Shown here: piece after piece, positions 1 through 59,407 of the stretch
How the letters are laid out: every line of letters begins with the position of its first letter
How positions within the stretch are numbered: the first letter of the stretch is position 1
Assembly (NCBI GenBank): GCA_051294375.1
Contig: CM119268.1
Location: forward strand, 21,173,020-21,237,019
Length of the DNA: 64,000 nt
From: Paraspadella gotoi
Taxonomy: Eukaryota; Animalia; Chaetognatha
Direction: 5' to 3'
Notes under the pieces: model-generated
What the model saw: only the letters and a program-made list of their open reading frames with translations
What the model was told of the DNA's origin: nothing
Database searches by the model: none
Position numbers and translations under genes: made by a program

Positions 1-400
1 TTGACGATGTTCTCTTCCGTTTATTTGTAATCTCCTTTCTCTCTCTCTCTCTCTCTCTCNNNNNNNNNNNNNNNNNNNNNNNNNAAAAAGAGAGAGATCC
101 ACGCGTTTAAAGTAGGACCGACAAAAAACGATGAATGAGATTGAGAAGTGCAAAAAAAAGGAAAAAAATAATTAAAAGAAGAAAAAATGAATCACTGTAA
201 AACTCTAAACTTACTTTCCTTCTTCTTCACCTTCGTATCATCTTCCTTACTTTTTATCTAAACTTTTCTTCATTTTTTTAGAATTCGAAAATATCGATCG
301 ATGCCAATTAAAAAGTCAACAGAAATCTCGTTGTCGCAAAAGGGATGGGATGAGAGGGGGAGAGAGATTGCCGAGAACAGATCGAAGACAAAAAACAGCG

Positions 401-474
<74 letters not shown>

Positions 475-869
475 AAAGGCGTCAAAAATAACGAAAAAAA
501 GGTTCTAAAAGCAAACAATCCAAGCATAAAAAGAAAGAAAAAATCCGCATTGGTTAGGGACGCGGAAAAGCGCTGATAAATGAAATTCGAATAACGAGTG
601 AGTGTGGCGAGTGCGAAAGACAGACAGAGACGAGAGACATACAGAAAGGAGAGATGGAATTTTTGAATGAAATAGCGCGGCGCAAAGCAGTCTCTCTATT
701 TTTTTATACTGTCTGATTTTCATTCGTTGTTGTTGAATGAGTTTTTTCAATTTTATTTCCCTCTTTCTTTTTAACATTTTTAAATTTTTAATTTTAGTTA
801 TTTTCTTAAAATCTGTTTTCTCCCTTCCTGTTTTTCACTTTTTATACCCTTTTCTTCTTCTCTCCTCTT

Positions 870-902
<33 letters not shown>

Positions 903-1541
903 GCTCTCCTCTCTCCTCTCCTCTCTCTCCTTTCTCTCTTTGTATTTGCCTATTTTCTCGCCTTTTCTCTTTTTTCATATTTTCTCTCGTTCATCTCATC
1001 TTCATTCGAACGAACGAAATCGAATTGAAATGTCACATGACTAACGCATCAGGGCATTAAATTATTTCAAAAGGGTAGTCGCGGCAAAGTATCTCTCTCT
1101 TTATCTGTGTCATTAAATCTTTCTTTTTATTCATTTTAACCATTTTCAATAATTTTTTAATTTATCATTTTAATACAATTCCTGGCATCGTTTCAAGAAT
1201 GGATGGTCTCAATGGTCTTTGTTCCATTGAAGTTTAAACAGGGGACGCAGTAATCATTCATAAACGTTCTTTATTTTGCGATCAATAAGGCAATGTTTTG
1301 TATTTAGTAAAATATTACCAATTTTTTTAACATTTAAAAAACTTTTAATGCTCTTCAATGTCTATCCATGTCACTCAAAACCGAAGTCAATAACAAGCCT
1401 ACCACTAAATTTTAAACCCTATAACCCAACTTGTAAAAACTCTTGACTTTCTAGCTCCACTAATAAAAAAACCACTGTTATTCTTATCTCATTGTGTTTT
1501 TGTGCAGAAGCAATCAAAAAGCTTTTCCATTTTTCCTTTCT

Positions 1542-1626
<85 letters not shown>

Positions 1627-3869
1627 CTTTCGCGAGCACACCCGTCATGTTTGAGAAGCATGTCGGACTCGTATTTCGTTTTATCCTCCGTCGTTCGACC
1701 GATCTGAGCGGAAAGGGCGCGGGTCCAACGTGGCCCAGGTTTTTAGCTCGTAAGATGATGGACCGCGTTGGCAGGCGTTCGAATCTGTGAAAACGTTAAA
1801 ATATTTTCATTTCGTATTGGACGATGATAATTGCAAATTCGCTCGGTTTCTTTCCATTTTCTTTGAAATATTCCTTTAATTTCTTTAAAAATGTATTGTT
1901 GTGTCAAATCTTTCTTTCCGTTTTAAATAAAATTTAAATGATAAAATCGTTTAATTATTTGCTAACTAATCTTTCCCGATATTTAAAAACCAAAACAAAT
2001 TACATGTAAAAATTCCCAATTTAGTTTTACACTTCTTCGTTAAAAATATTGAGAGACCAAAAAACAACCAGCGAGAAACGCTAAAACTCAAGGCAAAACG
2101 AAACCTGACAACGACCGACAACGACGACAACGGGACGACGACAAACGCATTGTCGAACGATAAAGAAAACAGTCTTGGTCACAGAACCAAAAATAATCCC
2201 AACCTTCTCGTTTTGCTATCTTTTATTCGCAGAAGCAATGAAAAAAAGGCAAAATAACAACAGGAAAACAGAAAAAATAAAGGAAAAAGAAAAAAAATAG
2301 AAAAAAGTTATTGAAACCCTTAAGTTATCGCTGAAGCTTCTGCCAACATCTTTCTTTTTGCCGCAAATTCTGACAGAATCAATGGCGCAATTGCAGTTCA
2401 AGTGTTAGAAATTGATTCAACGAAAAAAGTCATTTCTTATTAAATTGCAAAAAATCGTTTAGACTTGGCAAATAATATTAGCTCTTATTCTTCCCAGAAC
2501 GCCCCATTTCATCTTTAAAATAATTTATTTTTTAGTTTAAAAGATTGAGTTTGGAAGTTAGGCACGTTAGGGATTAGGTTAGTGATTATGGTTAGGGATT
2601 AGGTTAGTGATTAAGGTTAGGGAAGTATGATTTAAGGTTAGATTGTCCATGATTAAGGTTAGGGATTAGGTTAGTGATTAAGGTTAGGGTTGGTTATATT
2701 AAGGTTGAATAGTAGTAATTAAGGTTAGCGGGAATTAGGTTCAGTGATTAAGGTTTAGAGATTTGGTTAGTTGATTGTTAAAGGTTAAGGTTAAAAAGTA
2801 AAGGTTAATGCTTAAAAACTATGGTCATCAGGCGTTTTAAGTCTAGATTAGGCTTAGGAATTTAAGCTTAGCAGAATTAGGTCATAAGCTTTGATACATA
2901 TATTTTAAGGTAAAATATTTAAAGTTAAAAATTGCACATAAAAAAAAAATAAGGCACTCTGGGCAAAAAGAGCAGCCGAAATATCTAATACTGTTTCAGC
3001 TTTTGATAATCATAGCGTCACACGCTTCGCTGGGTCCTTTGCGAAAACTCGAAGCAAAAAAAGAGAACCGATTCCCATCTTGAGGTTGAGCGAAGTAAGT
3101 CAAAGCGGAAAGAGAAAAGGTAGAATAAAAACAATGGAACGAGCAGCCTAATAATGTAAAAATTGTCTAAAATAAGAAACTGCGGAAGAAAGAGGAAAAC
3201 GACAACGTACAACTATTTCTTTTTCCTCTACTTCGATTAACTTCAAAAGGAGGAAGAGAAAGAGAAAGAGAGAGAAAAAGCGATAGGAAGAAGGGGACAA
3301 TGGATAAAGCAATAAAAGAAAGTTTTCCATCATTTCTAATATTTACTAAATAAAAAAAAACTATTTTATTCTGGGATGTCTCTTTTTTAAACGTCCACGC
3401 ACTTCAATAGTGTACTTTATGTTTGTCCCCGTCTCATGTCTCTGTCTCTGCTCTCTCTCTCTCTCGTCCCTTCCCTTTCTACATCTCAATTGCCCTTGAA
3501 AACAACTTTTTCCATTTTCTTTATAAATGATAAGAATCGAATATTAATGTTGTTCTATGAGTTTTTAAAATAAAAAATAATCAATTAATAAATAATATAA
3601 TAATAAATAATAACTATAATAATAAATAATATATAATAATAATAATATAATAAAAATAATAATAATAACAACAATAATAATGTTCTTATTTAATGATTAA
3701 GCAAATCCTCCATTTTTTTTCAATTTTCTACATTTTTTTCTAAAATCTTTTACTTTTACATCTATATCATATATATCCTATACCTTAATAAAAAATTTCT
3801 CTCGCGTTCCTTGTTTAGGCTTTCCTATTTTGAATTCTTTTATTTTTAAAGTTTTTAAATGTTCTCATT

Positions 3870-4125
3870 CTTTCTTTAAATCTCGCCTCTTTCTTGTAAA
3901 TCTCCTCTTTCTTTTAAAATCTGCCTTTTTCTTTAAATCTCCTCTTCTTTAAATCTCCTCTTTCTTTAAATCTCCTCTTTCTGTTAAATCTCCTCTCTTC
4001 TTTAAATCTCCGTCTTTCTTTAACAATCCCTCTTTCTTTAATCTCCTCTTTCTTTACAATCTCCTCTTTCTTTTAAATTTCTCATCTTTCTTTAAATCTC
4101 CTCTTCTTTTAAATCTACCTCTTTC
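3870..4125. repeat. 17-bp minisatellite (CTTTAAATCTCCTCTTT)n, mirrored at 7228-7480 across a gap
   Basis: Tandem units are directly visible, and the reverse-complement units AAAGAGGAGATTTAAAG flank the gap at 7267-7443. Confidence 0.9.
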
Positions 4126-5081
4126 TTTCATTTTTTCTCATTTGTTTCACAAAAATGAAACCTTTGTTTCGGGGCTTGCAGGATAATTATAGCGTCGAAA
4201 AACACAAATAAAATTCGATTTGGAAATAAACAGAATCAGAAAAATAGAAAGCAACTTTAGAATTCAAAGTTTTTATTAAAATTTAATTATTTTCTTAGTT
4301 TTTAGGCACTAGTAAAATAGCCATCTAGAATGTTGCTCTCGAGTTTAAAAAATCGTTATTTCAGACTACAACAATAATAATTAAAACGTTTAGACGGTAT
4401 AATTATTTCAACGTACGCAGATATGTTTTACTCTTATCTTAGGAAATTAAAGAAACTACATTATATTTGCAGTAATATTTGTTTGAAAAAAGTATTTACA
4501 TACAAAGGCATCAAATAAATATTTTAACATCTCTCAAGCTTATTATATTTCACCCTAACGTGAAACAAGTAAATAGCATATACATATAAATACGTATTTA
4601 CAAATAAAAAATATTTTTTTTTTGGGGAGATAGAAAGTAGAGAAAATATTAAGAATGAAATTTAAGCTGAATTAAAAACAAGTGAAATTAATGAAGAAAA
4701 AAAACAGACAAACACATACAAAACCACAAATGAGAGAAAAAGGAGTGACATTTGGTTTTATGTCATGTCATCTCATCTCAGTGAACAATGTCAGATCACC
4801 GAAAACGACGATTCACTGAAACCTATTTCCTCCTTTATGAGGTTCTTACGCGTCACGCACTTGGACGACGACTACGACGACAACGACGACAACAACAACA
4901 ACAACGAGGTGAGGGAGAAATAAAATCCTTTTTTCCCGCATTTCTTCCCCTCTGCCTTGCAGTAATAAATCCTCTTCTTTTCCTTTTTTTTCTTTTTCTA
5001 AACTGGTTTGTTTGTTTATGTTATCTTTCTTTCTTTCTTTCTTTTCTTTTTTTCTTTTCTTTCTTTTCTTTCTTTTTTTTC

Positions 5082-5133
<52 letters not shown>

Positions 5134-5648
5134 TTTACTGGCCTTCTTTCTCTCTTTGTCCTGTCTCGTTTTCTGTCAATTTTTCTTTATTACTTAGCGA
5201 CTCGCTCTCTCTCTCTCTCCTCTTTCCCAGCAAGCAAAACAAAATTGCCACCTGTGACCCGTAGGAATGGAAAAACGAATAAAGTCCCGTCGCTTCTGTA
5301 GAAGAGAAAAAAAATGGATGATTTATTTGGAGAAAAAAATAGTACTAAGAGAAAGAGGAATCTTTTATTATTACCAAATTGTTTTAGTTACAATTCTAGT
5401 TAATAAACAATAAATTGAATAAGGATTTAGTAAAGGAACCTTTTTTTTGCCGTTAGCTGCCTGGTGAAGAGAAATAAGTAATTGTAAAATTGAAGAAATT
5501 ATGTAGATACAATATAAGGTAACATAGTAAGTACCACTAAATAATATATTTGGAAACTCAAATAGCTACTATATTTTATGAAAATAACAACTAAGTCATT
5601 GACGGATAATTAAATTCGGTGACTTGACGGAATGACAAAAGAAACGAG

Positions 5649-5731
<83 letters not shown>

Positions 5732-6275
5732 CATCTCTCTCTCTCTCTCTCTCTCCCCTCGTTTCTTTTGTCATTCCGTCAAGTCACCGAATTTAATTAT
5801 CCGTCAATGACTTAGTTGTTATTTTCATAAAATATAGTAGCTATTTGAGTTTCCAAATATATTATTTAGTGGTACTTACTATGTTACCTTATATTGTATC
5901 TACATAATTTCTTCAATTTTACAATTACTTATTTCTCTTCACCAGGCAGCTAACGGCAAAAAAAAGGTTCCTTCTACTAAATCCTTATTCAAGTTATATT
6001 GTTTATTAACTAGAATTGTAACTAAACAATTTGGTAATAAATAAAAGATTCCTCTTTCTCTTAGTACTATTTTTTCTCCAAATAAATCATCCATTTTTTT
6101 CTCTCTTCTACAGAAGCGACGGGACTTTATTCGTTTTCCATTCCTAGGGTCACAGGTGGCAATTTTGTTTTGCTTGCTGGGAAAGAGAGGGAGAGAGAGA
6201 GAGCGAGTCGCTAAGTAATAAAGAAAAATTGACAGAAAACGAGACAGGGACAAAGAGAGAAAGAAGGCCAGTAAA

Positions 6276-6355
<80 letters not shown>

Positions 6356-7672
6356 ATAACATAAACAAACAAACCAGTTTAGAAAAAGAAAAAAAAGGAA
6401 AAGAAGAGGATTTATTACTGCAAGGCAGAGGGGAAGAAATGCGGGAAAAAAGGATTTTATTTCTCCCTCACCTCGTTGTTGTTGTTGTTGTCGTCGTTGT
6501 CGTCGTAGTCGTCGTCCAAGTCGTGACGCGTAAGAACCTCATAAAGGAGGAAATAGGTTTCAGTGAATCGTCGTTTCGGTGATCTGACATTGTTCACTGA
6601 GATGAGATGACATGACATAAAACCCAAATGTCACTCCTTTTTCTCTCATTTGTGCGTTTGTATGTGTTTGTCTGTTTTTTTTTCTTCATTAATTTCACTT
6701 GTTTTTAATCAGCTTAAGATTTCATTCTTAATATTTTCTCTACTTTCTATCTCCCCAAAAAAAAAATATTTTTTATTTGTAAATACGTATTTATATGTAT
6801 ATGTATTTACTTGTTTCACCGTTAGGGTGAAATATAATAAGCTTGAGAGATGTTAAAATATTTATTTGATGCCTTTGTATGTAAATACTTTTTTAAACAA
6901 ATATTACTGCAAATATAATGTAGTTTCTTTAATTTCCTAAGAATAAGAGTAAAACATATCTGGTACTTGATAATTATACCTCTAAACGTTTAATTATTAT
7001 TGTTGTATCTGAAATAACATTTTTTAACTCGAGAGCACCATTCTAATGGCTATTTTACTAGTCTAAAAACTAAGAAAATAATTAAATTTTAATAAAAACT
7101 TTGAATTCTAAAGTTGCTTTCTATTTTCTGATTTTTTATTTCAAATCAATTTTATTTGTGTTTTCGACGTAATATTATCTGAAGCCAAAAAGGTTTCATT
7201 TTTGTGAAACAAATGAGAAAAAAATGAAAGAAAGAGGAGATTTAAAGAAAGAGGAGATTTAAAGAANNNNNNNNNNNNNNNNNNNNNNNNNNNNNNNNNN
7301 NNNNNNNNNNNNNNNNNNNNNNNNNNNNNNNNNNNNNNNNNNNNNNNNNNNNNNNNNNNNNNNNNNNNNNNNNNNNNNNNNNNNNNNNNNNNNNNNNNNN
7401 NNNNNNNNNNNNNNNNNNNNNNNNNNNNNNNNNNNNNNNNNNNNTTTAAAGAAAGAGGAGATTTAAAGAAAGATGAGATTTAAAAATTTAAAAATAAAAG
7501 AATTCAAAAATAGAAAGCCTAAAAAGGACGCGAGAAGAAATTTTATTAAGGTATAGATATATATATATAGATTTAAAAAGTAAAAGATTTTAGAAAAAAA
7601 TGTAGAAAATTAAAAAAAATGGAGGATTTCTTATCATTAATAAAACAATTATTATTGTTGTTATTATTATTA

Positions 7673-7758
<86 letters not shown>

Positions 7759-7860
7759 TTATTTTTAAAAACTCATAGACACATTAATATTATTCTTATC
7801 ATTTATAAAAAATGGAAAAAGGTTTTTCAAGGGCAATTGAGAATGTAGAAAGGGAAGGAC

Positions 7861-7892
<32 letters not shown>

Positions 7893-8310
7893 CGGGGACA
7901 AACATAAAGTACCTATTGAAGCGTGGACGTTTAAAAAAAGACACCCAGAATAAAATAGTTTTTTTTTTATTTAGTAAAATTAGAAATGAATGAAAACTTT
8001 TTTTATTCTTTATCCGATTGTCCCCTTTTCTATCCTTTTTCTCTCTCTTTCTCTTTCTCTTCCTCCTTTTGAAGTTAATCGAAGTAGAGGAAAGAAATAG
8101 TTACGTGTCGTTTTCCTCTTTTCCCAGTTTCTATTTTACAATTTTTTACATTATTAGCTCTCGTTCCATTGTTTTATTCTACCTTTTCTTTCCGACTTTG
8201 ACTTACTTCGCTCACTCAAATGGAATCGTTCTCTTTTTTTCTTCGATTTTCCAAAGACCCAGCGAAGCGGTGACCATGATTATCAAAAGCTGAAACAGTA
8301 TTAGATATTT

Positions 8311-8791
8311 CGGCTCTCTTTTCCCAGAGTGCCTTATTTTTTTTATTCAATTTTAACTTTAATATTTTACCTAAATATATTATCAAGCTTATGACCTAAT
8401 TCCTAAGCTTAATTCCTAAGCCTAATCTAACTTTAAACCCTGATCCATAATTTTTAACATTAACCTTTAACTTTTAACCTTAACCTTTAACAATCACTAA
8501 CCAAATCTCTAACCTTAATCACTAACCTAATCCCTAACCTTAATTACTAAACTAATTCCTAACCTTAATCACTAACCTAATCCCTAACCTTAATCACTAA
8601 CCTAATCCCTAACCTTAATCACTAACCTAATCCCTAACCTTAATCACTAACCTAATCCCTAACCTTAATCACTAACCTAATCCCTAACCTTAATCACTAA
8701 CCTAATCCCTAACCCTAACTTCCAACTCAATCTTTAACTAAAAAATAAATTATTTTAAAGATGAAATGGGGCGTTCTGGGAAAATAAGGCT
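8311..8791. mobile_element. MITE-like element with ~28-bp imperfect terminal inverted repeats and an internal telomere-like array
   Basis: The left end GGCTCTCTTTTCCCAGAGTGCCTTATTT resembles the reverse complement of the right end, AGCCTTATTTTCCCAGAACGCCCCATTT. A related right end with a CCCTAA-like tract recurs independently at 61730-61918. Confidence 0.5.
8496..8718. repeat. 25-bp telomere-like minisatellite (ACTAACCTAATCCCTAACCTTAATC)n, ~8 copies
   Basis: The 25-bp period is visible (8571, 8596, 8621...) and the unit contains CCCTAA. Mirror copies lie at 2560-2790 and 17005-17095. Confidence 0.9.
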
Positions 8792-9582
8792 AATATTATT
8801 TGCCAAGTCTAAACATTTTTTGCAATTTAATAAAATGACTTTTTTCGTTGATAATTTCTAACACTTGAACTGCAATTGCGCCATTGATTCGTCAGAATTT
8901 GCAAAAAGAAAGATGTTGGCAGAAGCTTCAGCGATAACTTAAGGTTTTCAAATAACTTTTTCTATTTTTTTTCTTTTTCCTTTATTTTTTCGTTTTCCTT
9001 TGTTTTTCCTTTTTTTCATTGCTTCTCAATAAAAGAACAAAAACGAGAAGTTGGGATTATTTTTGGTTCTGTGACCAAACGTGTTTTCTTTATCGTTCGA
9101 CATCGTTGTCGTCGTCGTTGTCGTCGTTGTCGTCGTTGTCGTCGTTGCCTTGAGTTTAGGTTTTCTGGTTGTTTTTGGTCTTCAATATTTTTAAACGAAG
9201 AAAGTTAAAATAAATTGGGAATTTTTAATGTAATTGTTTTGGTTTTTAAATCGGGAAAGATTATTACAAAATTAAACGATTTTATCATTTAAATTTTATT
9301 TAAACGAAAGGAAAGATTTGACACAACAATACATTTTTAAAGAAATTAAAGGAATATTTCAAAGAAAAATGAAAGAAACCGAATTTCAATTATCATCGTC
9401 AATACGAAATGAAAATATTTAACGTTTTACAGATTCGAACGCCTGCAACGGCGTCCATGATCTTACGACTAAAAACCTGGGCCACGTTGACCCGCCCTTT
9501 CCGCTCGATCGGTCGAAACGACGGAGGAAAAACGAAAATACGATCCGACATGTTCTCAAAACATGACGGGTGTGCTCGCGAA

Positions 9583-9662
<80 letters not shown>

Positions 9663-10258
9663 TGAAAAGCTTTTTTGATTGCTTCTGCACAAAAACACAA
9701 TGAGATAAGAATAACAGTGGTTTTTTTATTAGTGGACTAGAAAGTCAAGAGGTTTTTAAAGTTGGGTTATAGGTTAAAATTTAGTGTCAGGCTTTTTATT
9801 GACTTCGGGTTTTGAGTGACATGGATAGACATTGAAGAGCATTAAAGTTTTTTAAATGTTTAAAAATTGGTATATTTTACTAAATAAAAACATTGCTTAT
9901 TGACCGCAAATAAAAGAACGTTTATTGAATGATTACTGCGTCCCTTTTACTTCAATGGAACAAAACCATTGAGACCATCAATTTTGAAACGATGCCAGGA
10001 ATTGTATTAAAATGATAAAATTAAAAAATTATGAAAAATGGTTAAAATGAATAAAAAAAAGATTTAATGACACAGATAAAGAGAGAGATACTTTCCGACT
10101 GACCCTTTTGAAATAATTTATGCCCTGATCGTAGTCATTGACATTTCAATCGATTTCGTTCGTTCGAATGAAGATGAGATGAACGAGAGAAAATATGAAA
10201 AAGAGAAAAAGGGAGAAAATAGGAAATAAAGAGAGAAAGAGAGAAAGAGAGAGAGAGC

Positions 10259-10300
<42 letters not shown>

Positions 10301-10671
10301 AGGTAAATAAAAAAGTGAAAAACAGGAAGGGAGAAACAGATTTTAAGAAAAATAACTAAAAAATTAAAAATTTAAAAATGTTAAAAAGAAAGAGGGAATA
10401 AAATTGGAAAAAACTCATTCAAAACAACGAATGAAAATCAAAGTAGAAAAAAATAGAGAGACTGCTTTCGCTATTTCATTCAAAAATCCATCTCTCCTTT
10501 CTGTATGTCTCTCTCTCTGTCTGTCTTTCGCACTCGCACACACTCACTCTTATTCGAATTTCATTTATCAGCGCTTTTCCGCGTCCCTAACCAATGCGGA
10601 TTTTTTTCTTTCTTTTTTTATGCTTGGATTGTTTGCTTTTAGAACCTTTTTTTCGTATTTTTGACGCCTTT

Positions 10672-10763
<92 letters not shown>

Positions 10764-11200
10764 CGCTGTTTTTTGTCTTCGACTGTTCTCGGCAATCTCT
10801 CTCCCCCTCTCATCCATCCCTTTTGCCGACAACGAGATTTCTGTTGACTTTTTAATTGGCATCGATCGATATTTTCGAATTCTAAAAAANNNNNNNNNNN
10901 NNNNNNNNNNNNNNNNNNNNNNNNNNNNNNNNNNNNNNNNNNNNNNNNNNNNNNNNNNNNNNNNNNNNNNNNNNNNNNNNNNNNNNNNNNNNNNNNNNNN
11001 NNNNNNNNNNNNNNNNNNNNNNNNNNNNNNNNNNNNNNNNNNNNNNNNNNNNNNNNNNNNNNNNNNNNNNNNNNNNNNNNNNNNNNNNNNNNNNNNNNNN
11101 NNNNNNNNNNNNNNNNNNNNNNNNNNNNNNNNNNNNNNNNNNNNNNNNNNNNNNNNNNNNNNNNNNNNNNNNNNNNNNNNNNNNNNNNNNNNNNNNNNNN

Positions 11201-11390
11201 NAAAAAGAGAGAGATCCACGCGTTTAAAGTAGGACCGACAAAAACGATGAATGAGATTGAGAAGTGCAAAAAAAAGGAAAAAAATAATTAAAAGAAGAAA
11301 AATGAAATCACTGTTAAAAACTCTAACTTACTTTCCTTCTTCTTCACCTTCGTATCATCTTCCTTACTTTTTATCTAAACTTTTCTTCAT
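11201..11390 (+). repeat. Direct duplicate of 85-272
   Basis: AAAAAGAGAGAGATCCACGCGTTTAAAGTAGGACCGAC... is near-identical at both sites, and both follow N gaps. Confidence 0.95.
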
Positions 11391-14017
11391 TCCCTCTCAA
11401 CTATAATGAAAGGAACGAACGTTTGTTGTGACAGTATTTGTTCGTATTGTAGTTTGATCTACTTTTTACGTTATAAAATTACAATAAATAAATAATCAGT
11501 GGCTGCGCCAATACATGTAAATCACTTTCAAGGGCTTAAACTGAACTGTTACTGTGGCACTAATATCATTTTATAAATCAAAACAATATTATTTTTGTTT
11601 TGAAGTATGATATATGATTAACATGCATTTATAAAAATATAGAATAAGAAATAGAATAAAATCGAATAGAATAAGAAAAAAATACTTGTTAAAAAATATC
11701 AAAGAAATATATTTTTAATATAAGATAATAAAGATTTAAAAAAATTATTTGCTATATTTTTAAAGAGCAGGTGCAAGTAAAGATCTAGTGGATGTAGCTA
11801 AAATTTATTTTAAATGTTCCTTTGCCTTAAAAAAAGCTTCCTTCTTTGTAGAGCCCTCTAGTAAAATATAGTAAAAATATATAAAACAATTTTAATGAGA
11901 CTGTTCTTTTGCTTCAGAAAAAAATATTAAAAACTCTGGTGNNNNNNNNNNNNNNNNNNNNNNNNNNNNNNNNNNNNNNNNNNNNNNNNNNNNNNNNNNN
12001 NNNNNNNNNNNNNNNNNNNNNNNNNNNNNNNNNNNNNNNNNNNNNNNNNNNNNNNNNNNNNNNNNNNNNNNNNNNNNNNNNNNNNNNNNNNNNNNNNNNN
12101 NNNNNNNNNNNNNNNNNAATGCTCCTTTGTTTGTACAGCCATCTGGTTTATTAAGACAAAAACATATAAAAAATTGCTATTTTGTATAAAGCAATGCAAG
12201 TGAAGATCTGGTGTGGGCAGACAGAAGAGCACATTTCTATAGAAAGTAAAAGGAAAATGCTCATAGTAGAGAAAGTAAGAGACAAATCNNNNNNNNNNNN
12301 NNNNNNNNNNNNNCGCCTCCCTGCCTCTCCTTTCCTCTCCTTCCCCTCTGCTCTCTTTTCCCTCTCTCCTCCCCTCCCTCTCTTTCCTCCTTCACTTCCC
12401 CTCTTTTCTTTCTCTCTCTCTCCCTCTCTCTCTCCTCTCTCTCGTCTCTCTCTCTCTCTCTCCTCTCGCTCTCTCTCTCCTCTCTCTCTCTCTCTCTGAT
12501 CTGGCTGCCATCGAGGTTCTCTCTTGTTGAACAACGTTCAATTGATTTTTGAATTTGTCCACGTCAGCGTCTGCCTTTCGATCTCGATTTTTTCCTTCCG
12601 CTTACAATTTAAGGTCAAAAGCAATATAAAAACAAATAATTAGTGTCTATTATTATTTATTGATTGTTTCTCAAGGATATTGCGCAAATTAAGTCCCAAT
12701 AAGTGAATAATCTCCGGTGTTATTTTATGTAAGTTATTGTTGTATTTATATAGTATAAAACAGAATCGGATCGGAAGATCGGGCGGATCATCCGCAAGAA
12801 TCGGAATCGTCAAATCTTGCAATTGGTCAAGGACAAAATCTGGAATCGATCAATCAGCTTTGAAGAACCGATAGAATCCTGTAAACTAAGCTCTTTTGCC
12901 TCTTTGATCCTCCTCTCTAGATTATAATAGATTTAGCTTTTCTTAGTATTTTATGATGCGGCAGTAAATTGATGGCTGGTAGCGACGGGTTGAGCAGCAG
13001 CTGTGCATTCTAAAGAGTCCACGCCTCCAGAAGAAGACGTGGTGTTATACAATTATAAGCGTACGCTGAAGACACTATTAACGGTTAATTCTGTGATACT
13101 CAGTGACAAATTTATTTGAGAAATCACTTTAGGTGAATTTTACTTAATCCACCATCGAAATTGTTAAATTTTTTTTTCTACTTTCTTTTTATAATTATTT
13201 CCCGGTTACTTAATTTTCTTTTCTCCGTACTAGGCATTTGTCTCTTACTTTCTCTACTATGAGCATTTTCCCTTTTACTTTCTATAGAACATGTTGCTCT
13301 TCTGTCTGCCCACTACCAGATCTTCACTTGCATTGCTTTATACAAAATAGCAATTTTTTATATGTTTGTCTTAATAAACCAATGGCGTAACAAACAAAGG
13401 AGCAATTTTTAAAAATAAATAGCAATAAAATTTAGTTTAGGTATACTCCATCCAGAGTTTTTAATATTTTTTTCTGAAAGCAAAAGAACAGTCTCATAAA
13501 AGTTGTTTTTATAATATTTACTATATTTACTAAGAGGGCTCACAAAGAGGAAGCTTTTTTTAAGGCAAAGGAAATTTAAAATGAAATTTTAGCTACAATC
13601 CCATAGATCTATTACTTGGCACCTTGCCTCTTTAAAAATATAGCAAATAATTTTTTTAAATTTTCGTATTATTTAATTAAAATATATTTCTTTTGATATT
13701 TTTTAAACAAGTAAATTTTTTTTCTTATTCTATTCGATTTTATTCTATTCTTATTCTATATTTTTTATAAATGCATGTTAATCATATACATCACTTCAAA
13801 ACAAAAATAATATTGTTTTGATTTATAAATGATATCAGTGCCTACAGTAAACAGTTCAGTTTTAAGCCCCTTGAAAGTGATTTACATGTATTGGCCGCAG
13901 CCACTGATTATGTAATTTAATTGTAATTTATAACGAAAAAGTAGATCAAACTACAAACGAACAAATACTCGCTCACAGTTAACAAACCGTTCGTTTCCTT
14001 TCATTATAGTTGAGAGG
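11391..14017. repeat. Inverted repeat, arms 11391-12288 and ~13235-14017 (right arm noisy)
   Basis: CCTCTCAACTATAATGAAAGGAACGAAC at 11393 mirrors 13989-14017, and GCTCATAGTAGAGAAAGTAAGAGACAAAT at 12259 mirrors 13236-13264. Confidence 0.93.
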
Positions 14018-14043
14018 AAAACGAGGAGAGGAGAAGAGACGAA

Positions 14044-14089
<46 letters not shown>

Positions 14090-14209
14090 AGAGTAGAGAA
14101 GGAAGAGAGAGAGAGATGAGAGAGAGATTGTCGCCCTCGAATCCCGTCTGATTTTCGCCGGGAGGGAAGGATTACAAAAGGACGTGGCAACATCAAGGGA
14201 AGACGCCCG

Positions 14210-14294
<85 letters not shown>

Positions 14295-14349
14295 CTTTCT
14301 CTCCTTTCGCGCAGTCCTTTCCTCTCTTTCTCCTCTCTCTCTCTCACCG

Positions 14350-17095
14350 TAAAGTAGGGACCGACAAAAACGATGAATGAAGATTGAGAATGCCAAAAAA
14401 AAGGAAAAAGAGAGGACGCTACTTTAAAGAGAGAAATGCAAATCAGCTGTTAAAAAAACTTGCTAACGTTACTTTCCTTCTCTTGTCCACCTTCGTATCA
14501 TCTTCCCTTACTTTTTATCTAAACTTTTCTTCCATTTTTAGGAATTCGAAAATATCGATCGAATGCCAATTAAAAAGTCAAAACAGAAATCTCGTTGTGG
14601 CAAACAGGGAATGGATGAGAGCGGGGAGAGAGATTGGCCGAGAACAGTGCCGCAAGACAAAAACAAGCGGCAGAAAAGAAGAGAGAGAGAGAGAGAGGAG
14701 AGAGAGCAGGAGAGAGAGAGAGAGAGAGAGAGAGACGGCAGAGAGCGCAAGAGCCAGAGAGAGAGAAGCCGAGAGACAAAAGGAGAGCGTCAGAAGAGAT
14801 CACGAAAGAAAAGGTTCTAAAAGGCAAACAATCGCGGAAGCATAAAAAAAGACAATGAAAAAAATCCGCAGGTATCGCTGAACTGGCAGGAGGGTCTGAT
14901 AGGTAATAAGAGTATGCGAAGGAATCGTCAGGACGCACGGAAAAAGCAGCTGGTAAATGAAATTTCCGAAATAAGAGCGAGTGTGTGCGAGTGCCGAAAG
15001 ACAGACAGAGAAAGAGGACTACCAGAACAAGGAGAGAATGGATTTTTGAAATGAAATAGCGAAAGCAAGTCTCTCTATTTTTTTTTCTACTTGATTTTCA
15101 CTTCGTTTGTATTGAATGAGTTTTTCCAATTTGTTATCCCTCTTTCTTGTTAACATTTTTACATTTTTTAAGTGTTTTTTTAGTTATTTTTCTTAAAATC
15201 TGTTTCTCCCTTCCTGTTTTTCATTTTTATTTACCTTCTCTTTTTCTCTTTCTCCTCGTCTCTCTCTCCTCTCTCTCGCTCTGCTCTCTTCTCCTCCCGA
15301 GTTCTCTCCTCTCTCTCTTCTTCCTTCTTCTCTCTTTATTTCCTATTTTTTCTCCCTTTTCTCTTTTTCATATTTTCTCTCGTTCATCTCATCTCATTCG
15401 GAACGAACGAAATCGATTGAAAATGTCAATGACTACGATCAGGGCATAAATTATTTCAAAAGGGTCAGTGCGGAAAGTATCCTCTCGTCTTTATCTGTGT
15501 CATTAAAATCTTTTTTTGTTATTCATATTTTAAAAAAGACCATATTTTCATTAAATTCAGTGTTTTAATTTTATCATTTTAGAATTAATACAATTCTGGC
15601 ATCGTCAAAAATTGATGGGCCATCACTCAACTAGGTTTTTCGTTCCATTTGAAAGTAAAAGGGAACGCAGTATCATTCAAATAAACGTTCTTTTATGCGG
15701 TCAATAAGCAATGCTTTTTTATTTAGAAAATATACCCAATTTTTAAACATTTAAACTGTAAATGCTCTTCAATGTCATCCATGTCACTCCAAAACCCGAA
15801 GTCAATAAAAAGCCTGACACTAAAAATTAACCTATAACCCAACTTAAAACCTCTTGACGTTTCTAGCCACTAATAAAAAACCAACTGTTATTCTTATCTC
15901 CATTTGTTTTTTGTGCAGAAGCATCAAAAAAGCTTTTCCATTTTCCTTTTCTCTTCTCCTTCTCTCCCTTCTCTCTCTTCTCTCTTGCCTCTCTTCTCTC
16001 CTGCGTCTGGTATCTTTTCCCTCCTCTCGTCTCTCTCCTCTCCTGCTCTCTCTCCCGCCACGCTCGCCTCTCGCCCGGCCTCCTCCTCTCATCGGCCATC
16101 TTGTTCTCACCCTCTCGTCTACTCCTCTCCTTCTCTCTCTTTCGCCGGCACACCCTCATGTTTTGAGAACATGTCGGATCGTATTTTCGTTTTCCTCCGT
16201 CGTTTCGACCGATCGAGCGGAAGGGCGGGTCAACGTGGCCCAGGTTTTTAGTCGAAGATCATGGACGCCGTGCAGGCGTTCAGAATCTGTAAAACGTTAA
16301 ATATTTTCATTTTCGTATGACGAAATGATAATTGAAATTCGGTTTCTTTCATTTTTCTTTGAAATATTCCTTTAATTTCCTTTAAAAATGTATTTTGTTC
16401 AAATCTTTCCTTCGTTTAAATAAAATTTAAATGATAATCTTTAACTTTGTAATAATCTTTCCCGAATTAAGAAACCAAAACAATTTACATTGAAAATTCC
16501 CAATTTATTTTACTTTCTTCGTTTTAAAAATATTGAAGACCAAAAACAACCAGAACCTAAACTCAAGGCAACGAACGACAACGACGACAACGACGACAAC
16601 GACGCGGCAACGATGTCGAACGATAAAGAAAACACGTTTGGTCACGACCAAAAATAATCCCAACTTCTCGTTTTTGTTCTTTTATTGAGAAGTCAAATGA
16701 AAAAAGGAAAAACAAAGGAAAACGAAAAAAAACGGGAAAAGAAAAAAAATAGAAAAAGTGTATGTTGAAACCTTTAAGTTTATCGCTGAAGTTCTGCCAA
16801 CATCCTTTCTTTTGTGCAAATTCCTGACGAATCAATGGCGCAATTGCAATTCAGTGTTAGAAATTATCAACGAAAAGTCATTTATTAAATGCAAAAAATG
16901 TTTAGACTTGGCAAATAATATTAGCCTTATTTTCCCGCCCCAGAACGCCCCACTTTCATCTTAAAATAATTTATTTTTTTTACGTTAAAGATTGAGTTGG
17001 AAGTTAGGGTTAGGGATTGAGGTTAGTTGATTAAGGTTAGGATTAGGCTTGTGATTAAGGTTAGGATTTTAGGTTAGTGATTATAGGTTAGGGAG
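14350..17095 (+). repeat. Third, indel-rich direct copy of segment ~110-2600
   Basis: Collinear matches such as GACCGATCGAGCGGAAGGGCGGGTCAACGTGGCCCAGG at 16207 versus 1698, with frequent insertions. Confidence 0.95.
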
Positions 17096-17915: not shown

Positions 17916-18301
17916 CGAGTGAAATCTGTGAGCGTCTGTCTGCCTGTGATTGGGTCCTTCCTCCTGGCACCTTTTTTTCATTAGCGCCTTCACGACCTCA
18001 CCATCCCTGAGGGCCTTCACCGCATTCACTGCCTCCATTCTAACCCTTTTTCCCGGCCACTCTCACTCAGTGCCCTCACTTTTCCATTTGTCCTCACCTC
18101 ACCTTTGAAATGAGTTTAATCCTCATCGATCGTTTTTGACCGTGTCTGTCTGTCGGTCTGTCTGTCTCTCTGTCCGTCGGTCTGTCTGTCTCTCTGTCCG
18201 TCGTCCTGTTGTCTGTCTCTCTTGTCCTGTCTCCGTCGTCTGTCTGTAGTCGGCAATTGCCTAGGTTCACCCCGCCTGTAGGCATGACACCTTCAGTCCT
18301 G

Positions 18302-18372
18302 ACCCGGTGGCTCATTGAGTAAAGCCATCAGCTCATGACCACTAGGTACCGGGTTCAAATCCCAACCCGGTA
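18302..18372 (+). promoter_or_regulatory. tRNA-derived internal Pol III promoter (A box, B box), tRNA-Met-like loop
   Basis: A box-like TGGCTCATTGAG and B box GGTTCAAATCCC with tRNA-like spacing, plus a CTCATGA anticodon-like loop. The cloverleaf is imperfect, so this is not a functional tRNA. Confidence 0.75.
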
Positions 18373-18377
18373 CTTAC

Positions 18378-18463
18378 CCTGTGGGAAGCGTGAGGACGGC
18401 CGTAAGCCGCCTTGGGGGCGTGGCAACCCTCAAAGCTGGTTCCAAGCCAGGACCGTTCCATGG
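18378..18463 (+). ncRNA. P5-type twister ribozyme (noisy copy), predicted cleavage 18403/18404
   Basis: Element order is GAGG, 7 nt, TAA, GCC, GCC, P3 hairpin, CTGG TTCCAAGC CAG, P5. It has indels relative to the cleaner inverted copy. Confidence 0.65.
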
Positions 18464-18528
18464 CTACTAAGGGGGTTATAGAAGTTGACGGATAGTCATC
18501 TTCAGCCCACTTAGCGCCTAATCCACAC

Positions 18529-18539
18529 TGGTGAGCCCG
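18529..18539 (+). promoter_or_regulatory. Putative primer binding site (tRNA-Trp-like)
   Basis: TGGTGAGCCCG lies 1 nt after the LTR-terminal CA. It matches the usual tRNA-Trp PBS start TGGTGACCCCG at 10/11 positions (reference sequence recalled, not searched). Confidence 0.55.
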
Positions 18540-18816
18540 TGGATAAGGCGCTAAGTGGGTGGAAGATATATCCGTAACTTCTATAACCCCCTTTAGTAGC
18601 CATGGAAGCGGTCCTGGGCTTGGAACCAGGCTTGAGGGGTTGCCACGCCCCCAAGGCGGCTTACGGCCGTCCTCACGCTTCCACAGGGTAAGTACCGGGT
18701 TGGGATTGAACCCGGTACCTAGTGGTCATGAGCTGATGGCTTTACTCAATGAGCACCGGTCAGGACTGAAGGTGTCATGCTACAGGCGGGTGAACCTAGG
18801 CAATGCCGCGACTACA
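18539..18816 (-). mobile_element. Inverted copy of family A LTR (fold-back)
   Basis: Reverse complement of 18245-18526, ending at ACTACA 18811-18816. Confidence 0.85.
18600..18687 (-). ncRNA. P5-type twister ribozyme, predicted cleavage 18663/18662
   Basis: Minus strand reads CCTGTGGAA GCGT GAGG ACGGCCG TAA GCC GCC TTGGGGG cgtggcaac CCCTCAA G CCTGG TTCCAAGC CCAGG accgc TTCCATGG. P5, the catalytic GA, UAA, T2 (GCC), P3, P4 and the loop-4 motif are all present. Confidence 0.8.
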
Positions 18817-19622
18817 TGTCTTCTACGTCGTCTTATTTCCGTCGTCTGTCGTCGCGTCGGTCTGTCTCGGTCCGTCGGTCTGTTCCGTCGGTCTGTCTGT
18901 CTCGTCCGGTCCTGTCCTGTTTCATAATCTGTCCGGGTGTTCTGTCTGTCCTGTCCTGTCCTGTCGGTCTGTCTGTCTCTCTGTCTCGTGCGGTCTGTCT
19001 TGTGTCTGTTTTCTCTCTGTTCGCGTCTGTCTGTGTGTCTGTCCGTCTGTCGCTGCTCTGTTCTCTGTCTGTCCGTCGTCTGTCTTCGTCCGTCTGTCCT
19101 GTCGGTCTGTCTGTCTGTCCGTCGGTCTGTCCGTTCTGTCTGTCCGTCGGTCTGTCTGTCTCTCTGTCCTCGGTCTGTCTGTGTGTCCTGTCCGTCTGTG
19201 CCTCTGTCCGTCGTCTGTCTGTGTGTCTGTCCGCTGTCTGTCTGTCTGGTCTGTCTGTCCGTCAGTCTGTCCTGTCCGTTGGTCTTGTCCCGTCGGTCTG
19301 TCTGTCCGTCGTCGTGTTGTCTCTGTCTCGGTCTGTCTGTCTGTCCGTCGTCTGTCTGTCTCCTCTGTCCGTCGGTCTGTCTCTGTCTGTCGGTCTTGTC
19401 TGTCTCCCTGTCCGTCGGTCCTGTCTGTCTGTCTGTCCGTCGGTCTGTCTGTCTCTCTGTCCGTCGGTCTGTCTGTCTGTCTGTCCTGTCGTCTGTCTGT
19501 CTCTCTGTTCGTCGTCGTCTGTCTGTCTGTCTGTCCGTCGGTCTGTCTCTCTGTCTGTGCCGTCGATCTGTCTGTCCTGTCCCTGTCCGTGCGTCTGGTG
19601 CTGTCCTCTCTGTCCGTCGGCT
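18817..19622. repeat. Degenerate (CTGT/CCGT)n tetranucleotide array, also at 18140-18244
   Basis: Directly visible, and it explains the 230-290 aa ORFs in all frames. Confidence 0.95.
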
Positions 19623-20121: not shown

Positions 20122-20324
20122 CAGACGATCTGCAATTCGATCCTCCTCTTTCTCCCCCTCTAATCCACAGTTCAATGATCCTCCCCCTCGCAAGCAGCAG
20201 GGATGTAAACCACAAGCCCCACTCACCTCCGTCCCGAGGCTGCGGCCGCCCCCGGGCTCATTTTGCCCCCTGGAGGCCAGACATTCCGCTCGAAGCCTCT
20301 CTCCTCTCCAAGGAGCCGAAAAAG
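20122..20324 (+). CDS. Probable internal coding exon, unknown product (DDLQFDPPLSPP...HFAPWRPDIPLEASLLSKEPKK)
   Basis: GC-rich open frame bounded by a pyrimidine tract with CTAG/CAG acceptor and a consensus AAG|GTGAGT donor at 20325. Confidence 0.45.
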
Positions 20325-21619
20325 GTGAGTTCTTTGCCCGCGAAAATCCGAATCTCACCTTCGAAGTCGTTTTGGCCGAAGATAGGAAAGTATCTTTCGT
20401 CGTCGCGAAACGAAATTCTTCCTCTTCGATCCTTACCTCTCCTTACCTCATCCTTACCTCACCTTTCTNNNNNNNNNNNNNNNNNNNNNNNNNNNNNNNN
20501 NNNNNNNNNNNNNNNNNNNNNNNNNNNNNNNNNNNNNNNNNNNNNNNNNNNNNNNNNNNNNNNNNNNNNNNNNNNNNNNNNNNNNNNNNNNNNNNNNNNN
20601 NNNNNNNNNNNNNNNNNNNNNNNNNNNNNNNNNNNNNNNNNNNNNNNNNNNNNNNNNNNNNNNNNNNNNNNNNNNNNNNNNNNNNNNNNNNNNNNNNNNN
20701 NNNNNNNNNNNNNNNNNNNNNNNNNNNNNNNNNNNNNNNNNNNNNNNNNNNTCGCATTTTTTCCCCTTAAGGATCTTCCGCGTCGCATATGACAGACTGG
20801 GGTATGGTATTCCCACCTGCTCTCTCTCTCTCTTTTTCTTTCTCTCTCTCNNNNNNNNNNNNNNNNNNNNNNNNNNNNNNNNNNNNNNNNNNNNNNNNNN
20901 NNNNNNNNNNNNNNNNNNNNNNNNNNNNNNNNNNNNNNNNNNNNNNNNNNNNNNNNNNNNNNNNNNNNNNNNNNNNNNNNNNNNNNNNNNNNNNNNNNNN
21001 NNNNNNNNNNNNNNNNNNNNNNNNNNNNNNNNNNNNNNNNNNNNNNNNNNNNNNNNNNNNNNNNNNNNNNNNNNNNNNTCGCTCCCTCTCTCTTTCTCCG
21101 CAACTGGATTTAACGGTTTCCCCATCAGCAACGGACCTACGAAAACCGCGCGCGTCTGAAATACTGAGGACCTTTTATTTTTCCACAACTCAAAAAAAAA
21201 TGTTAGAAGGAAAAAGCAACGAGTCGTCAAATTTTCGACCTTAAACGATTATCACCCCTTTAAGCCCAACCCAAACCCCAATCCAAGGCCCAGATTTGGG
21301 TATATGGGTGTAGTTATAATGTTACTAACTTACTAGTCTTTATTCAGCTAGGACTTGCAATACTAAATTATTGTTTTAAAATGAATTATTTTTTATTGTT
21401 AGACTATTATTCAAGCCTTTCTTATTTTTTTAACGCATGAAAACAGACAAAACAGAAAAAAATTATTACTGATATGTTTTGCCCAAACAATTTTTGGCCC
21501 AACCTTAGAGTCAATGCTGGCTCGGCTTTTAGAATTCGGTCCACCCTACCTCGTGCCTTAGTGTTCCGCCTCTACACATCCCTGCGTGTACCCATCTACA
21601 CACCCCTGCGTTCACCCCC

Positions 21620-23613: not shown

Positions 23614-23958
23614 TGTCTCTTGATAATGACTTTTTCAAAAAAATGTTGGTGACACAAAAGGGAGGAAGAGAACGACGACGACGACAGCGACGAAAATGAG
23701 GTTCGAGAACGAAGCACTATGATTACGTGAATGACAACGACGACGACGACGACGATGACGACGACAAAAAAAACGAGGGAACAAAGAATGAAAAGCAAAA
23801 ACTAATAAGAGAACAAACAAACGCGGAATCATCAAAGGCACAATGACGAAGGCAACCAATTTTGCAGAAGGCGACTTCGATGTCGACTTTATATTGCGTT
23901 GCTCTTGGAATTTAGTGAATTGAAATTGAATTGGAATTGAGTGAATGGCATCACGGTA

Positions 23959-24409
23959 TTGCAACGCGGTATTGCCAACCGGGCACTGCATCGCGGCATT
24001 GCAATACGGTTTTGCAAACCGGGCATTGCATTGCGGCATTGCAATACGGTTTTTCAAACCGGGCACTGCATCGCGGCATTGCAATACGGTTTTGCAAACC
24101 GGGCATTGCATCGCGGCATTGCAATACGGTTTTGCAAACCGGGCATTGCATCGCGGCATTGCAATACGGTTTTGCAAACCGGGCACTGCATCGCGGCTTT
24201 GCAATACAGTTTTGCAAACCGGGCACTGCATCGCGGCATTGCAATACAGTTTTGCAAACCGGGCATTGCATCGCGGCATTGCAATACGGTTTTTCAAACC
24301 GGGCACTGCATCGCGGCATTGCAATATGGTTTTGCAAACCGGGCACTGCATCGCGGCATTGCAATACGGTTTTGCAAACCGGGCACTGCATCACGACATT
24401 GCAATACGG
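23959..24409. repeat. 40-bp GC-rich minisatellite (GCAATACGGTTTTGCAAACCGGGCACTGCATCGCGGCATT)n, ~11 copies
   Basis: Exact 40-bp period from 24001 to 24361 with few substitutions and no spacers. Confidence 0.97.
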
Positions 24410-24677
24410 AACAAAACTTCATCGACGGAATAAAAATCATTCGACGATCAGTTTTTCTGCGACGCAGAAGACGACGACAATTACGACGATGACAAGACGA
24501 TGACGACGACGATAATGAAGACGACGACAATGACGACAATTACGACGATGACAAGACGACGACGACGACGATAATGAAGACGACAGCGATGCACAATGAC
24601 GGTTTCCATGACATTTTGACAATGATAAATAATGATGATAATTAAATCATTAAAAAAAAATATCGATGATAGTTATA

Positions 24678-44039: not shown

Positions 44040-49342
<5,303 letters not shown>

Positions 49343-58200: not shown

Positions 58201-58575
58201 ACCAATTTTACAGATTTGTGCCATACTATGGGAAATAACGATGTCGTCAGGAATTTAGTGCCCTCTATCACGAATTTGGAAATCACAATCAATCTGCTCT
58301 CGGTTTTTTGCAAATAGCGACGACAAGAGAAAGAAATATTGTAGTTTCTATAGCTTCTGGTGAATATGGAAGCATTCTCCAAAATCATGTTTTTCTCCAA
58401 GAGCTAAAAAAAATTTATCCAGTCATTCACCAATCTTACATGGGTTTGAAATCGGTCACCGCCGGCAAGCGGTTTGATTTATAACTTGTAAATCCAGGGT
58501 TCAATCCTGGTTGCATCAGCGATTAATAATTTGTAAAAAGATTATTTATAACTTTTCAATTTTTTTTTGACACGA
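55250..58575 (+). repeat. Tandem duplicate: insertion-corrupted copy (~55250-57130) followed by a cleaner copy (~57240-58575)
   Basis: Shared anchors include CATCAGTGGAGAATTAACCCTCAAA at 56115 and 57825, and AAATTTATCCAGTCA at 56927 and 58411. Confidence 0.9.
58015..58526 (+). CDS. Protein-like frame with stops (gene fragment, unknown product)
   Basis: A 100-aa ORF of normal composition (KTLQNYLDKFSGVRLFGGKDIEDPTKF...) continues past a stop as RRQERNIVVSIASGEYGSILQNHVFLQELKKIYP. Confidence 0.35.
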
Positions 58576-58885
58576 GAGAGTCCGTCAGTTCTAACTTATC
58601 GATAAAATGCACATCAAGAACCATACTGGATGTTCTAGAGGTTATAACTCAGCCCTTTACCCAGACCTGGAAAAAATTAACACACAAGTCTGTAAACAAC
58701 AAAACAGTCAACTAAAAAAAATTAAATACAATGGATTGTTACTCAAAAGTCAAAACCAAAAACAGCATGGAAAGTAATCACCACGTATATGTGTCTGAAA
58801 AATAACTTGCGTAGTTATTATGAATCTAAGAAAGTGAAGAGACAGTAATTATTGATAAGTGTTAATGACAGAACCGTTCAATATA

Positions 58886-58961
58886 AGCAGTCCCTGAGCT
58901 TCGGATCAAGCTGTAACACCATGTTACAGGCGGGTTAAGCGCCCCGTCCCTCTTAACTGCT
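58886..58961 (-). ncRNA. P5-type twister ribozyme in the 3' LTR, predicted cleavage 58937/58936
   Basis: Minus strand reads AGCAGT taa GAGG GACG GGGCGCT TAA CCC GCC TGTAACA tgg TGTTACA G CTTGA TCCGAAGC TCAGG g ACTGCT. It has P5 6 bp, P3 7 bp, P4 5 bp, a loop-4 YCCGAAGC, T1 CG:CG and T2 GCC. Confidence 0.85.
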
Positions 58962-58963
58962 AG

Positions 58964-59035
58964 GCGGCCACCGGGCTAGAACCCCGGACCTTTGGGTTGG
59001 GAGGCAAATGACTTGCCTCCGGCACCAATGGCTAC
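58964..59035 (-). promoter_or_regulatory. 72-nt tRNA-Gly(CCC)-like head with Pol III A/B boxes inside the LTR
   Basis: Acceptor stem GTAGCCA/TGGCCGC, anticodon arm TTTG.CTCCCAA..CAAA, T arm CCGGG GTTCTAG CCCGG. The D arm is degenerate. Confidence 0.75.
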
Positions 59036-59070
59036 TGATGAACGGTTGGTGGATTTTAGTCCACCATACA

Positions 59071-59081
59071 TCCCCCCTCCC
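59071..59081 (-). promoter_or_regulatory. Polypurine tract (PPT)
   Basis: GGGAGGGGGGA lies immediately 5' of the LTR-initial TG on the minus strand. Confidence 0.85.
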
Positions 59082-59320
59082 GTAGGAGGAAGTCTAATCT
59101 CTTCAGTGAATTGTTGTTGGTGGAAAGTGGCGTTCACCAAGTTGAGGCATGTCGCCTGATGTTGTTGTTGGCGGAAAGTGCATCGTCAGTGTTGAGGCAG
59201 TGTCGCGGCTGAACAGGTGTTTGTTGGTCGTGCTGTGTGTGTTCGGAAGTGCCGAATCGAGCATGAAGAGATAGTGAATTTATTGAAAAGCTGTATAGAT
59301 GACAGTAACTCGTTCAAATA

Positions 59321-59407
59321 AGCAGCATCCCTGAGCCTTTGGATCAGGCTGTAACACCAATGTTACAGGGCGGGTGTTAAAGCCCGCCCGTCGCCTCTTG
59401 AACTGCT
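59321..59407 (-). ncRNA. Twister ribozyme in the 5' LTR (indel-rich copy)
   Basis: AGCAGT..GAGG.GACG..TAA..CCCGCC.TGTAACA..TGTTACA G CCTGA TCCAAAGGC TCAGG, collinear with the 3' LTR copy. Confidence 0.6.

Follow-up and report, generated by a model that had tools for sequence, protein, structure and literature searches.

The 64,000-nucleotide stretch of the chaetognath Paraspadella gotoi analyzed here (contig CM119268.1, positions 21,173,020 to 21,237,019; hereafter the window) holds two families of short repeats, A and B, in which a decayed tRNA-like unit is followed by a fold resembling the twister ribozyme. Family A, seen at 18245-18816, is very probably built from the long terminal repeats (LTRs) of a Helenus-type element. 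Helenus (TRIMp3) elements are short, non-coding LTR elements with a non-functional tRNA-derived sequence in the LTR (Kojima 2024, PMC10886601, in its accessible parts). The explanation that fits best, and that we regard as probable, is that family A is a high-copy, likely non-autonomous and gene-less terminal-repeat retrotransposon in miniature (TRIM) of this type, which carries a predicted twister behind a presumed RNA polymerase III (Pol III) promoter and would work in the manner of the plant retrozymes.

The region 18245-18816 is a palindrome in which two copies of one 283-nucleotide TG...CA unit meet at a sequence resembling a primer-binding site (PBS). The plus copy (TGT...ACA, 18245-18527, forward strand) is followed by a spacer C and the PBS-like TGGTGAGCCC (18528-18538, forward strand), which forms the center of the palindrome and also occurs behind the LTR in other copies. 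Beyond it lies the inverted second copy (18539-18816, reverse strand), which lacks the last base of its 3' end. The arms are 92.3% identical, with many indels between them. A preliminary description of this DNA had named a TGTAGT...ATCCACA unit, a C and the PBS-like TGGTGAGCCCG, and all of these are present (18245-18527, then 18529-18539). It had also called the site Trp-type, and the site does match the honeybee Trp PBS at 9/10 positions (Fig. S2 of PMC10886601), a comparison with the honeybee's site rather than with the tRNAs of the host. TGTC flanks the palindrome on both sides (18241-18244 and 18817-18820, forward strand) and is a possible 4-bp target duplication, the size given for animal Helenus elements, those of fungi and plants having 5 bp (PMC10886601, in part). 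These flanks lie within a CTGT-type minisatellite whose right tract keeps the orientation of the left one (18817-19620 holds 95 CTGT and 0 ACAG). Because TGTC is frequent in the left tract, accounting for 14 of its ~102 four-mers, the flank match is weak.

Copies of family A beyond this locus were sought in public sequencing data. Nine runs (one organism, three studies) match the region, and contigs from five of them (X1, X3, X4, X6 and X9) were compared. None of the nine is recorded as RNA, X9 being at most a guess, and this says nothing about expression. Contigs over 18225-18575 number 4312 in X1, 4188 in X3, 1802 in X4 and 378 in X9. Depth summed over the family A unit reaches ~1.4 million (X1), against ~100 for single long contigs; summed contig depth, which is not itself a copy number, suggests thousands of family A copies. 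The contigs leave the unit exactly at 18245 and 18527 and pass into unrelated AT-rich DNA. Before 18245, the loose ends of 48 contigs in X4 show an agreement of 0.4; behind 18527, those of 53 (X3), 65 (X1), 46 (X6) and 17 (X9) contigs are heterogeneous and AT-rich, with an agreement of 0.39-0.44. Among the loose ends listed, no poly-A or simple-repeat tail follows CCACA, and there is no 5' truncation peak. A minority of copies run through the C and TGGTGAGCCC into a common downstream sequence: depth at 18536-18538 relative to 18512-18514 is 50.9k/1001k (X3), 40.7k/759k (X1), 5.9k/165k (X6) and 573/7611 (X9), or ~4-8%. Past the PBS-like site, 9 contigs in X3 and 16 in X1 enter this common sequence (agreement 0.67 and 0.76, respectively), which differs from the inverted LTR.

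This contig pattern is that of many solo or 3' LTRs together with some 5' LTRs followed by an internal region. The preliminary description had named a poly-A or simple-repeat tail as the sign that family A is a short interspersed nuclear element (SINE), and its LTR reading came through: copies have sharp TG...CA ends, in most cases stop at CCACA without a tail and in some continue into the PBS, and the family A unit is therefore an LTR and not a SINE. Fixed TG...CA ends accompanied by solo copies are also features of Helenus-type elements. A miniature inverted-repeat transposable element or a DIRS-like element with native inverted LTRs was likewise considered and rejected, since other copies pass from the PBS into different DNA.

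Within the plus copy, a decayed tRNA-like unit occupies 18301-18373 (forward strand). It was assessed with an ungapped template of 12 invariant positions, drawn from general knowledge of tRNA and applied at all offsets on both strands of the window. A score of 11/12 occurs at two offsets only, 18301 in family A and 59034 in family B; 10/12 is reached by the minus copy of family A (18691-18763, reverse strand) and by three unrelated offsets. The unit has an A-box half TGGCT at 18308, a B box at 18352-18362 and CAT at the anticodon positions 34-36, so that the A and B boxes with a Met-like loop described earlier are borne out. Judged by the Helenus boxes, TRGCY and GGTTC are present and the YGG half reads TGA. 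The stems of the unit are broken (acceptor 5/7, D 3/4, anticodon 2/5 and T 3/5 pairs), which rules out a functional tRNA-Met gene at 18301-18373 and makes the unit a promoter relic rather than a tRNA gene. ARAGORN reports 0 tRNAs in the window, including none at this position. The unit is likely to act as a Pol III promoter. A T4 run is absent from both family A arms, from the family B 3' LTR and from the family B internal part. A long hairpin at 18343-18376 encloses the B box; the majority letter of the family at 18374 extends this hairpin, and the T arm of the tRNA has therefore been rebuilt into a new structure.

Family B, on the reverse strand, is a miniature element that has two LTRs and a purine tract (58835-59522), and its ~690 bp fall inside the 311-1263 bp given for Helenus (PMC10886601, in part). 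Its 5' LTR (59264-59522) is a noisy copy with 79.8% identity to the 3' LTR, and the 193-nucleotide internal region (59071-59263) ends in an 11-nucleotide purine tract (59081-59071). The 3' LTR (58835-59070) contains a tRNA-like unit at 59034-58962, with 11/12 invariant positions, and a twister-like fold with GA at 58948 and a predicted cut at 58937/58936. The element is flanked by ATTTC and CTTTC, in noisy sequence. A third family B LTR is represented by its 3' end at 61134-61209 (reverse strand, 95.9% identity to the 3' LTR), the rest reading N. As previously described, the order of modules is common to the two families, the tRNA-like unit being followed by the twister-like fold, whose first strand starts a few bases from tRNA position 73 in both. 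The further claim that the families are unrelated in sequence holds for their 3' parts, where 263 of 500 shuffles score as high, and weakly for their 5' parts (7 of 500), and fails for the ribozyme core. A diversified group rather than a one-off, as the preliminary description had it, is indeed what two families with an identical module order and a covarying pseudoknot amount to, both of them from one organism.

The best-preserved twister-like fold, of type P5, is found in the minus copy of family A (18600-18687, reverse strand). Read in order, it comprises P5, GA with the T1 strand (18674-18670), a self-complementary 6-mer (18669-18664), UAA with the predicted cut at 18663/18662, a 3-nucleotide P2, GC, P3, and P4 (18630-18626 / 18617-18613) with its loop L4 (18625-18618). 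The previously reported P4 of CCTGG/CCAGG, loop TTCCAAGC, 7-bp P3 and P5 are thus intact in this copy (18687-18600), whereas the P4 of the plus copy (fold at 18377-18463, forward strand, predicted cut 18403/18404) is one base short, lacking a C. The P4/L4 form of the minus copy is the commoner one in the contig loose ends in 4/4 runs. Among the variants listed, the commonest in the core is 18406 G>A, present at 6-13% in 4/4 runs, which keeps the first P2 pair; the predicted bulge at 18389 varies to T and A across family A copies.

The minus copy of family A and the 3' LTR of family B have one register: GA, a 3-nucleotide T1, 6 nucleotides, UAA, 3 nucleotides, GC and C, followed by P3, G, a 5-bp P4 and an 8-nucleotide loop ending in AAGC, after which P5 closes the molecule. 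The T1 pseudoknot is GGA/UCC in A and CGG/CCG in B, which amounts to two compensatory double changes, and P3, P4 and P5 differ in sequence between the families with their pairing kept. Both families thus present the core layout of a P5 twister (UAA, GC, P4 with an 8-nucleotide loop, GA, T1 and T2), and the order of segments agrees with Table 1 of PMC8501958, circularly permuted at P5. A twister descriptor matches twice in the window, in the family A minus copy and in family B, and in 0 of 3000 shuffles of each unit, a lenient control because the descriptor was written after both motifs had been seen. On this modeled fold, a twister ribozyme that is active in some of the copies is a better than even prospect.

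A pattern of a B box followed by a twister was found at 9 metagenomic loci and rejected as chance, as 3/9 had three T1 pairs, 1/9 had a 4-pair P4 and 0/9 had both; viral contigs gave 0 matches. A scan of the window for hammerhead cores produced 9 loose matches, none of them in family A or B.

The inverted arrangement at 18245-18816 is a one-off and not the structure of the family, and the reading of the family is unaffected by either of two origins. Both arms carry minority letters of the family at 18278 (8%), 18374 (2%) and 18382 (16%; all frequencies from X1) and therefore go back to a single copy or a single rare subfamily, which rules out two independent insertions. Slightly favored is that the second copy arose by amplification or by a fold-back in assembly and is not genomic DNA. 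These shared alleles are consistent with it, as are the 16.7 kb of the window taken up by long inverted duplicates, of whose differences 66-88% are indels. So are the lack of any contig spanning the junction and the depth of 0 from 18542 on in 4/4 runs, although such a hole proves nothing and hairpins drop out of short-read libraries. Against it, the inverted arm stops precisely where the LTR has its 5' end, and the flanks have the same orientation and both read TGTC, whereas a simple fold-back would invert them. Close behind stands a real insertion of an aberrant complementary DNA (cDNA) bearing a 5' LTR end on either side, for example from the end-to-end joining of two strong-stop products of which one retained 10 PBS bases.

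Elsewhere in the window, large inverted and direct duplicates, differing mostly by indels, occupy 274-17094 and 44047-49336; duplicates of this kind typify amplification chimeras when a long-read assembly is noisy. At 55400-58550, a region of ~1.5-2 kb is present in two direct, noisy copies, 78-83% identical in pieces, which are probably an assembly duplication. An array of a 40-bp unit at 23868-24489 has central copies more than 90% identical. Nearer to family A, a GC-rich single-copy island at 20140-20360 opens with the 10 bases that close the family A LTR on its 3' side and, beyond these, has no other similarity within the window. Seven open reading frames compared with Pfam gave no match above a cut-off, and one protein search, restricted to longer proteins, had no match either; the repeats mark the host as a eukaryote.

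A number of observations weigh against a ribozyme-bearing, retrozyme-like TRIM. Neither the window nor the contigs revealed a full-length family A copy, a polypurine tract (PPT), a second LTR or a helper element. In family B, a clear PBS at the start of the internal region is not recognizable in the noisy copy, and the noisy 5' LTR holds one T4 run. The Rfam model Twister-P5 (RF02684), which is built without P3, scores family A at 16.8 bits (E 0.67) against a cut-off of 37.6 and does not match family B; at gathering level, Rfam has 0 matches across the window. The 3-nucleotide strand of P2 forms two stacked pairs and one across a bulge, compared with the canonical four pairs. P1 has at most one pair within one molecule, over a 4-nucleotide loop, compared with the at least two pairs expected. 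In both families, minimum energy is reached by a competing hairpin in which P2 and T2 pair with the strands of T1 and P1. With pseudoknots not counted, this hairpin is favored over the open-core fold by 7.6 and 9 kcal/mol, and it too gives a good alignment of A with B, in another register. The motif has modest folding z-scores (-1.74, -0.23 and -0.06), the variants listed show no greater conservation of the core than of the rest of the LTR, and the T1 covariation rests on two families.

These observations can be gathered into a rival explanation, which we hold to be unlikely yet the most serious challenge to an active ribozyme: family A would be an ordinary Helenus-type TRIM whose LTR RNA is structured but inactive, the competing hairpin being its real fold. 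The motif would then be a decayed captured twister, or a four-way junction serving packaging, stability or termination. The missed Rfam cut-off, the short P2 and the lack of a P1 hairpin favor it, and the competing hairpin, besides being the fold of minimum energy, covaries once between A and B. Against it, all nucleotides of the twister layout fall in one register in both families, with T1 covarying, and the same slot appears, by eye, to be filled by a hammerhead in two published Helenus families.

Far less credible is an element copied by target-primed reverse transcription, with the PBS-like text incidental, whether a ribozyme-bearing, tRNA-derived SINE similar to Schistosoma SM-alpha or a fragment of a Penelope pseudo-LTR: most copies are single and dispersed, and SINE-like elements with a Pol III promoter and a hammerhead do exist (PMC6765202, in part), but 56 nucleotides precede tRNA position 1, both ends are sharp TG...CA with heterogeneous flanks after CCACA, tails and a 5' truncation peak are wanting among the loose ends listed, a single base separates the unit from the PBS-like site, and two LTRs and a purine tract are present in family B.

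If family A is instead a TRIM with a working twister, its replication can be pictured as follows. Pol III would initiate in the 5' LTR, close to tRNA position 1, and read through the element. The twister in the 3' LTR would cut at U^A and so set the 3' end of the RNA, in place of termination at a T run, and a second cut in the 5' LTR would remove the tRNA head of ~100 nucleotides. Such double cutting would yield RNA of unit length, with a 5'-OH at one end, a cyclic phosphate at the other and no terminal repeat, which a host ligase of the RtcB type could circularize, as shown for retrozymes. A Gypsy-type helper would then begin reverse transcription at the PBS and integrate the product as full-length or solo-LTR copies. 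By analogy with the retrozymes, a circular RNA intermediate is conceivable, its prospects being somewhat short of even. Should the 5' site often escape cutting, the ~100-nucleotide tRNA head could instead serve as an ordinary R region.

The 6-mer in place of P1 invites a further proposal. It is self-complementary in both families (CGGCCG and GGCGCU, -10.7 and -8.3 kcal/mol), and 6-mers that pair with themselves are rare, at 16/273 and 8/230 in the two units (6% and 3.5%). Because the 6-mer is too short for a hairpin, it may pair between LTR copies, where two copies form six pairs, and the rarity of such 6-mers in A and B suggests pairing of this kind. Twister cleavage is inefficient without P1 (PMC8501958, in part). 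Pairing of the 6-mers between the two LTRs of one transcript may restrict cutting to full-length RNA. That P1 is completed by two copies is a tentative proposal from the modeled fold, and somewhat doubtful.

Among known systems, the Helenus elements are closest. The tRNA-in-LTR half of the layout is already known from them, together with a PBS behind the 5' LTR, a PPT, many solo LTRs and several families per genome (PMC10886601, in the parts available). Most of the Helenus LTRs in the accessible supplement have, by eye, a T-rich run soon after the B box; family A differs in having ~165 nucleotides after it, including the twister-like fold, with no T4 run. In the accessible text of the Helenus paper, 'twister' has 0 mentions and 'ribozyme' appears once, in a reference title. 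Two of the elements in its DataS1, Helenus-2_SyJa-LTR and Helenus-2_SyUm-LTR, appear by eye to contain a type III hammerhead right behind the B box, with GUC, a stem, CUGAUGA, a second stem, GAAAC and complementary loops. Both have a Trp PBS and, again by eye, no T4 run after the B box, and the accessible portions of the paper leave the hammerhead unmentioned. Five motifs sought in the available Helenus supplement occur at 0, 1, 4, 0 and 0 places; judged by eye, no place has the surroundings of a twister, although line breaks may hide motifs.

Twisters of other retroelements and ribozymes of other Pol III repeats offer partial parallels. The type-P5 twister RF02684 has the same UAA cleavage loop, GA with T1, GC of T2, P3 insert and P4 with an 8-nucleotide loop ending in AAGC, and the T-variant twisters of Schistosoma Perere-3 are likewise tied to a retroelement (PMC8501958, in part). 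Family A departs from both in scoring below the Rfam cut-off, in its 3-nucleotide P2 and in having a palindromic 6-mer instead of a P1 hairpin; moreover, its fold lies in mid-LTR behind a tRNA unit, whereas Perere-3, a non-LTR element, has its twister at the 5' end. In Schistosoma SM-alpha, too, a Pol III promoter is followed by a ribozyme (PMC6765202, in part). The dimer-dependent hammerheads of amphibians (axolotl) have a one-pair stem and a palindromic loop, a minimal design that depends on two copies, as is proposed for the family A fold, and RtcB circularizes their RNA (PMC7229834, in part). SM-alpha and the amphibian repeats differ in being non-LTR tandem repeats with hammerheads, and have no PBS or PPT. 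In the open literature found, twisters come only with non-LTR elements, and neither an LTR element with a twister nor a TRIMp3 with a ribozyme was met, subscription journals and Repbase lying outside that scope.

The other close relatives are the LTR retrozymes of plants, with a ribozyme in each LTR, a PBS, a PPT and a non-coding center, for which a circle model has been put forward (Cervera et al. 2016, PMC4918200, in part). Their logic of double cleavage, circularization and helper-driven integration would, by analogy, apply to family A. Retrozymes use type III hammerheads, whereas family A has a twister-like fold, and circles have been shown for retrozymes; as read here, family A works like a retrozyme, yet by the hammerhead it is no member of that group. 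A tRNA-derived promoter was not met in the accessible parts of PMC4918200. Retrozymes are described mainly from plants (10.64898/2026.07.22.740005, in part), and, the host being an animal, family A would extend LTR retrozymes beyond them if the explanation is true. From its two identical LTRs, a Pol III-driven LTR element has to obtain RNA whose ends are defined, and for Helenus a ribozyme placed behind the promoter would be a direct answer; in the same case, twisters would gain a role in LTR elements, and a need for two copies would make the twister a natural two-input RNA switch. The widest generalization, and an improbable one for now, is a class of Pol III-driven LTR retrozymes outside plants, with a slot for a ribozyme behind the tRNA promoter (a twister occupying it here, a hammerhead in the gall-wasp element Helenus-2) and a two-LTR P1 that gates cutting and circularization. 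Taken together, the tRNA and twister layout of family A would join two known types of element, Helenus and the plant retrozymes, and so link the one to the other.
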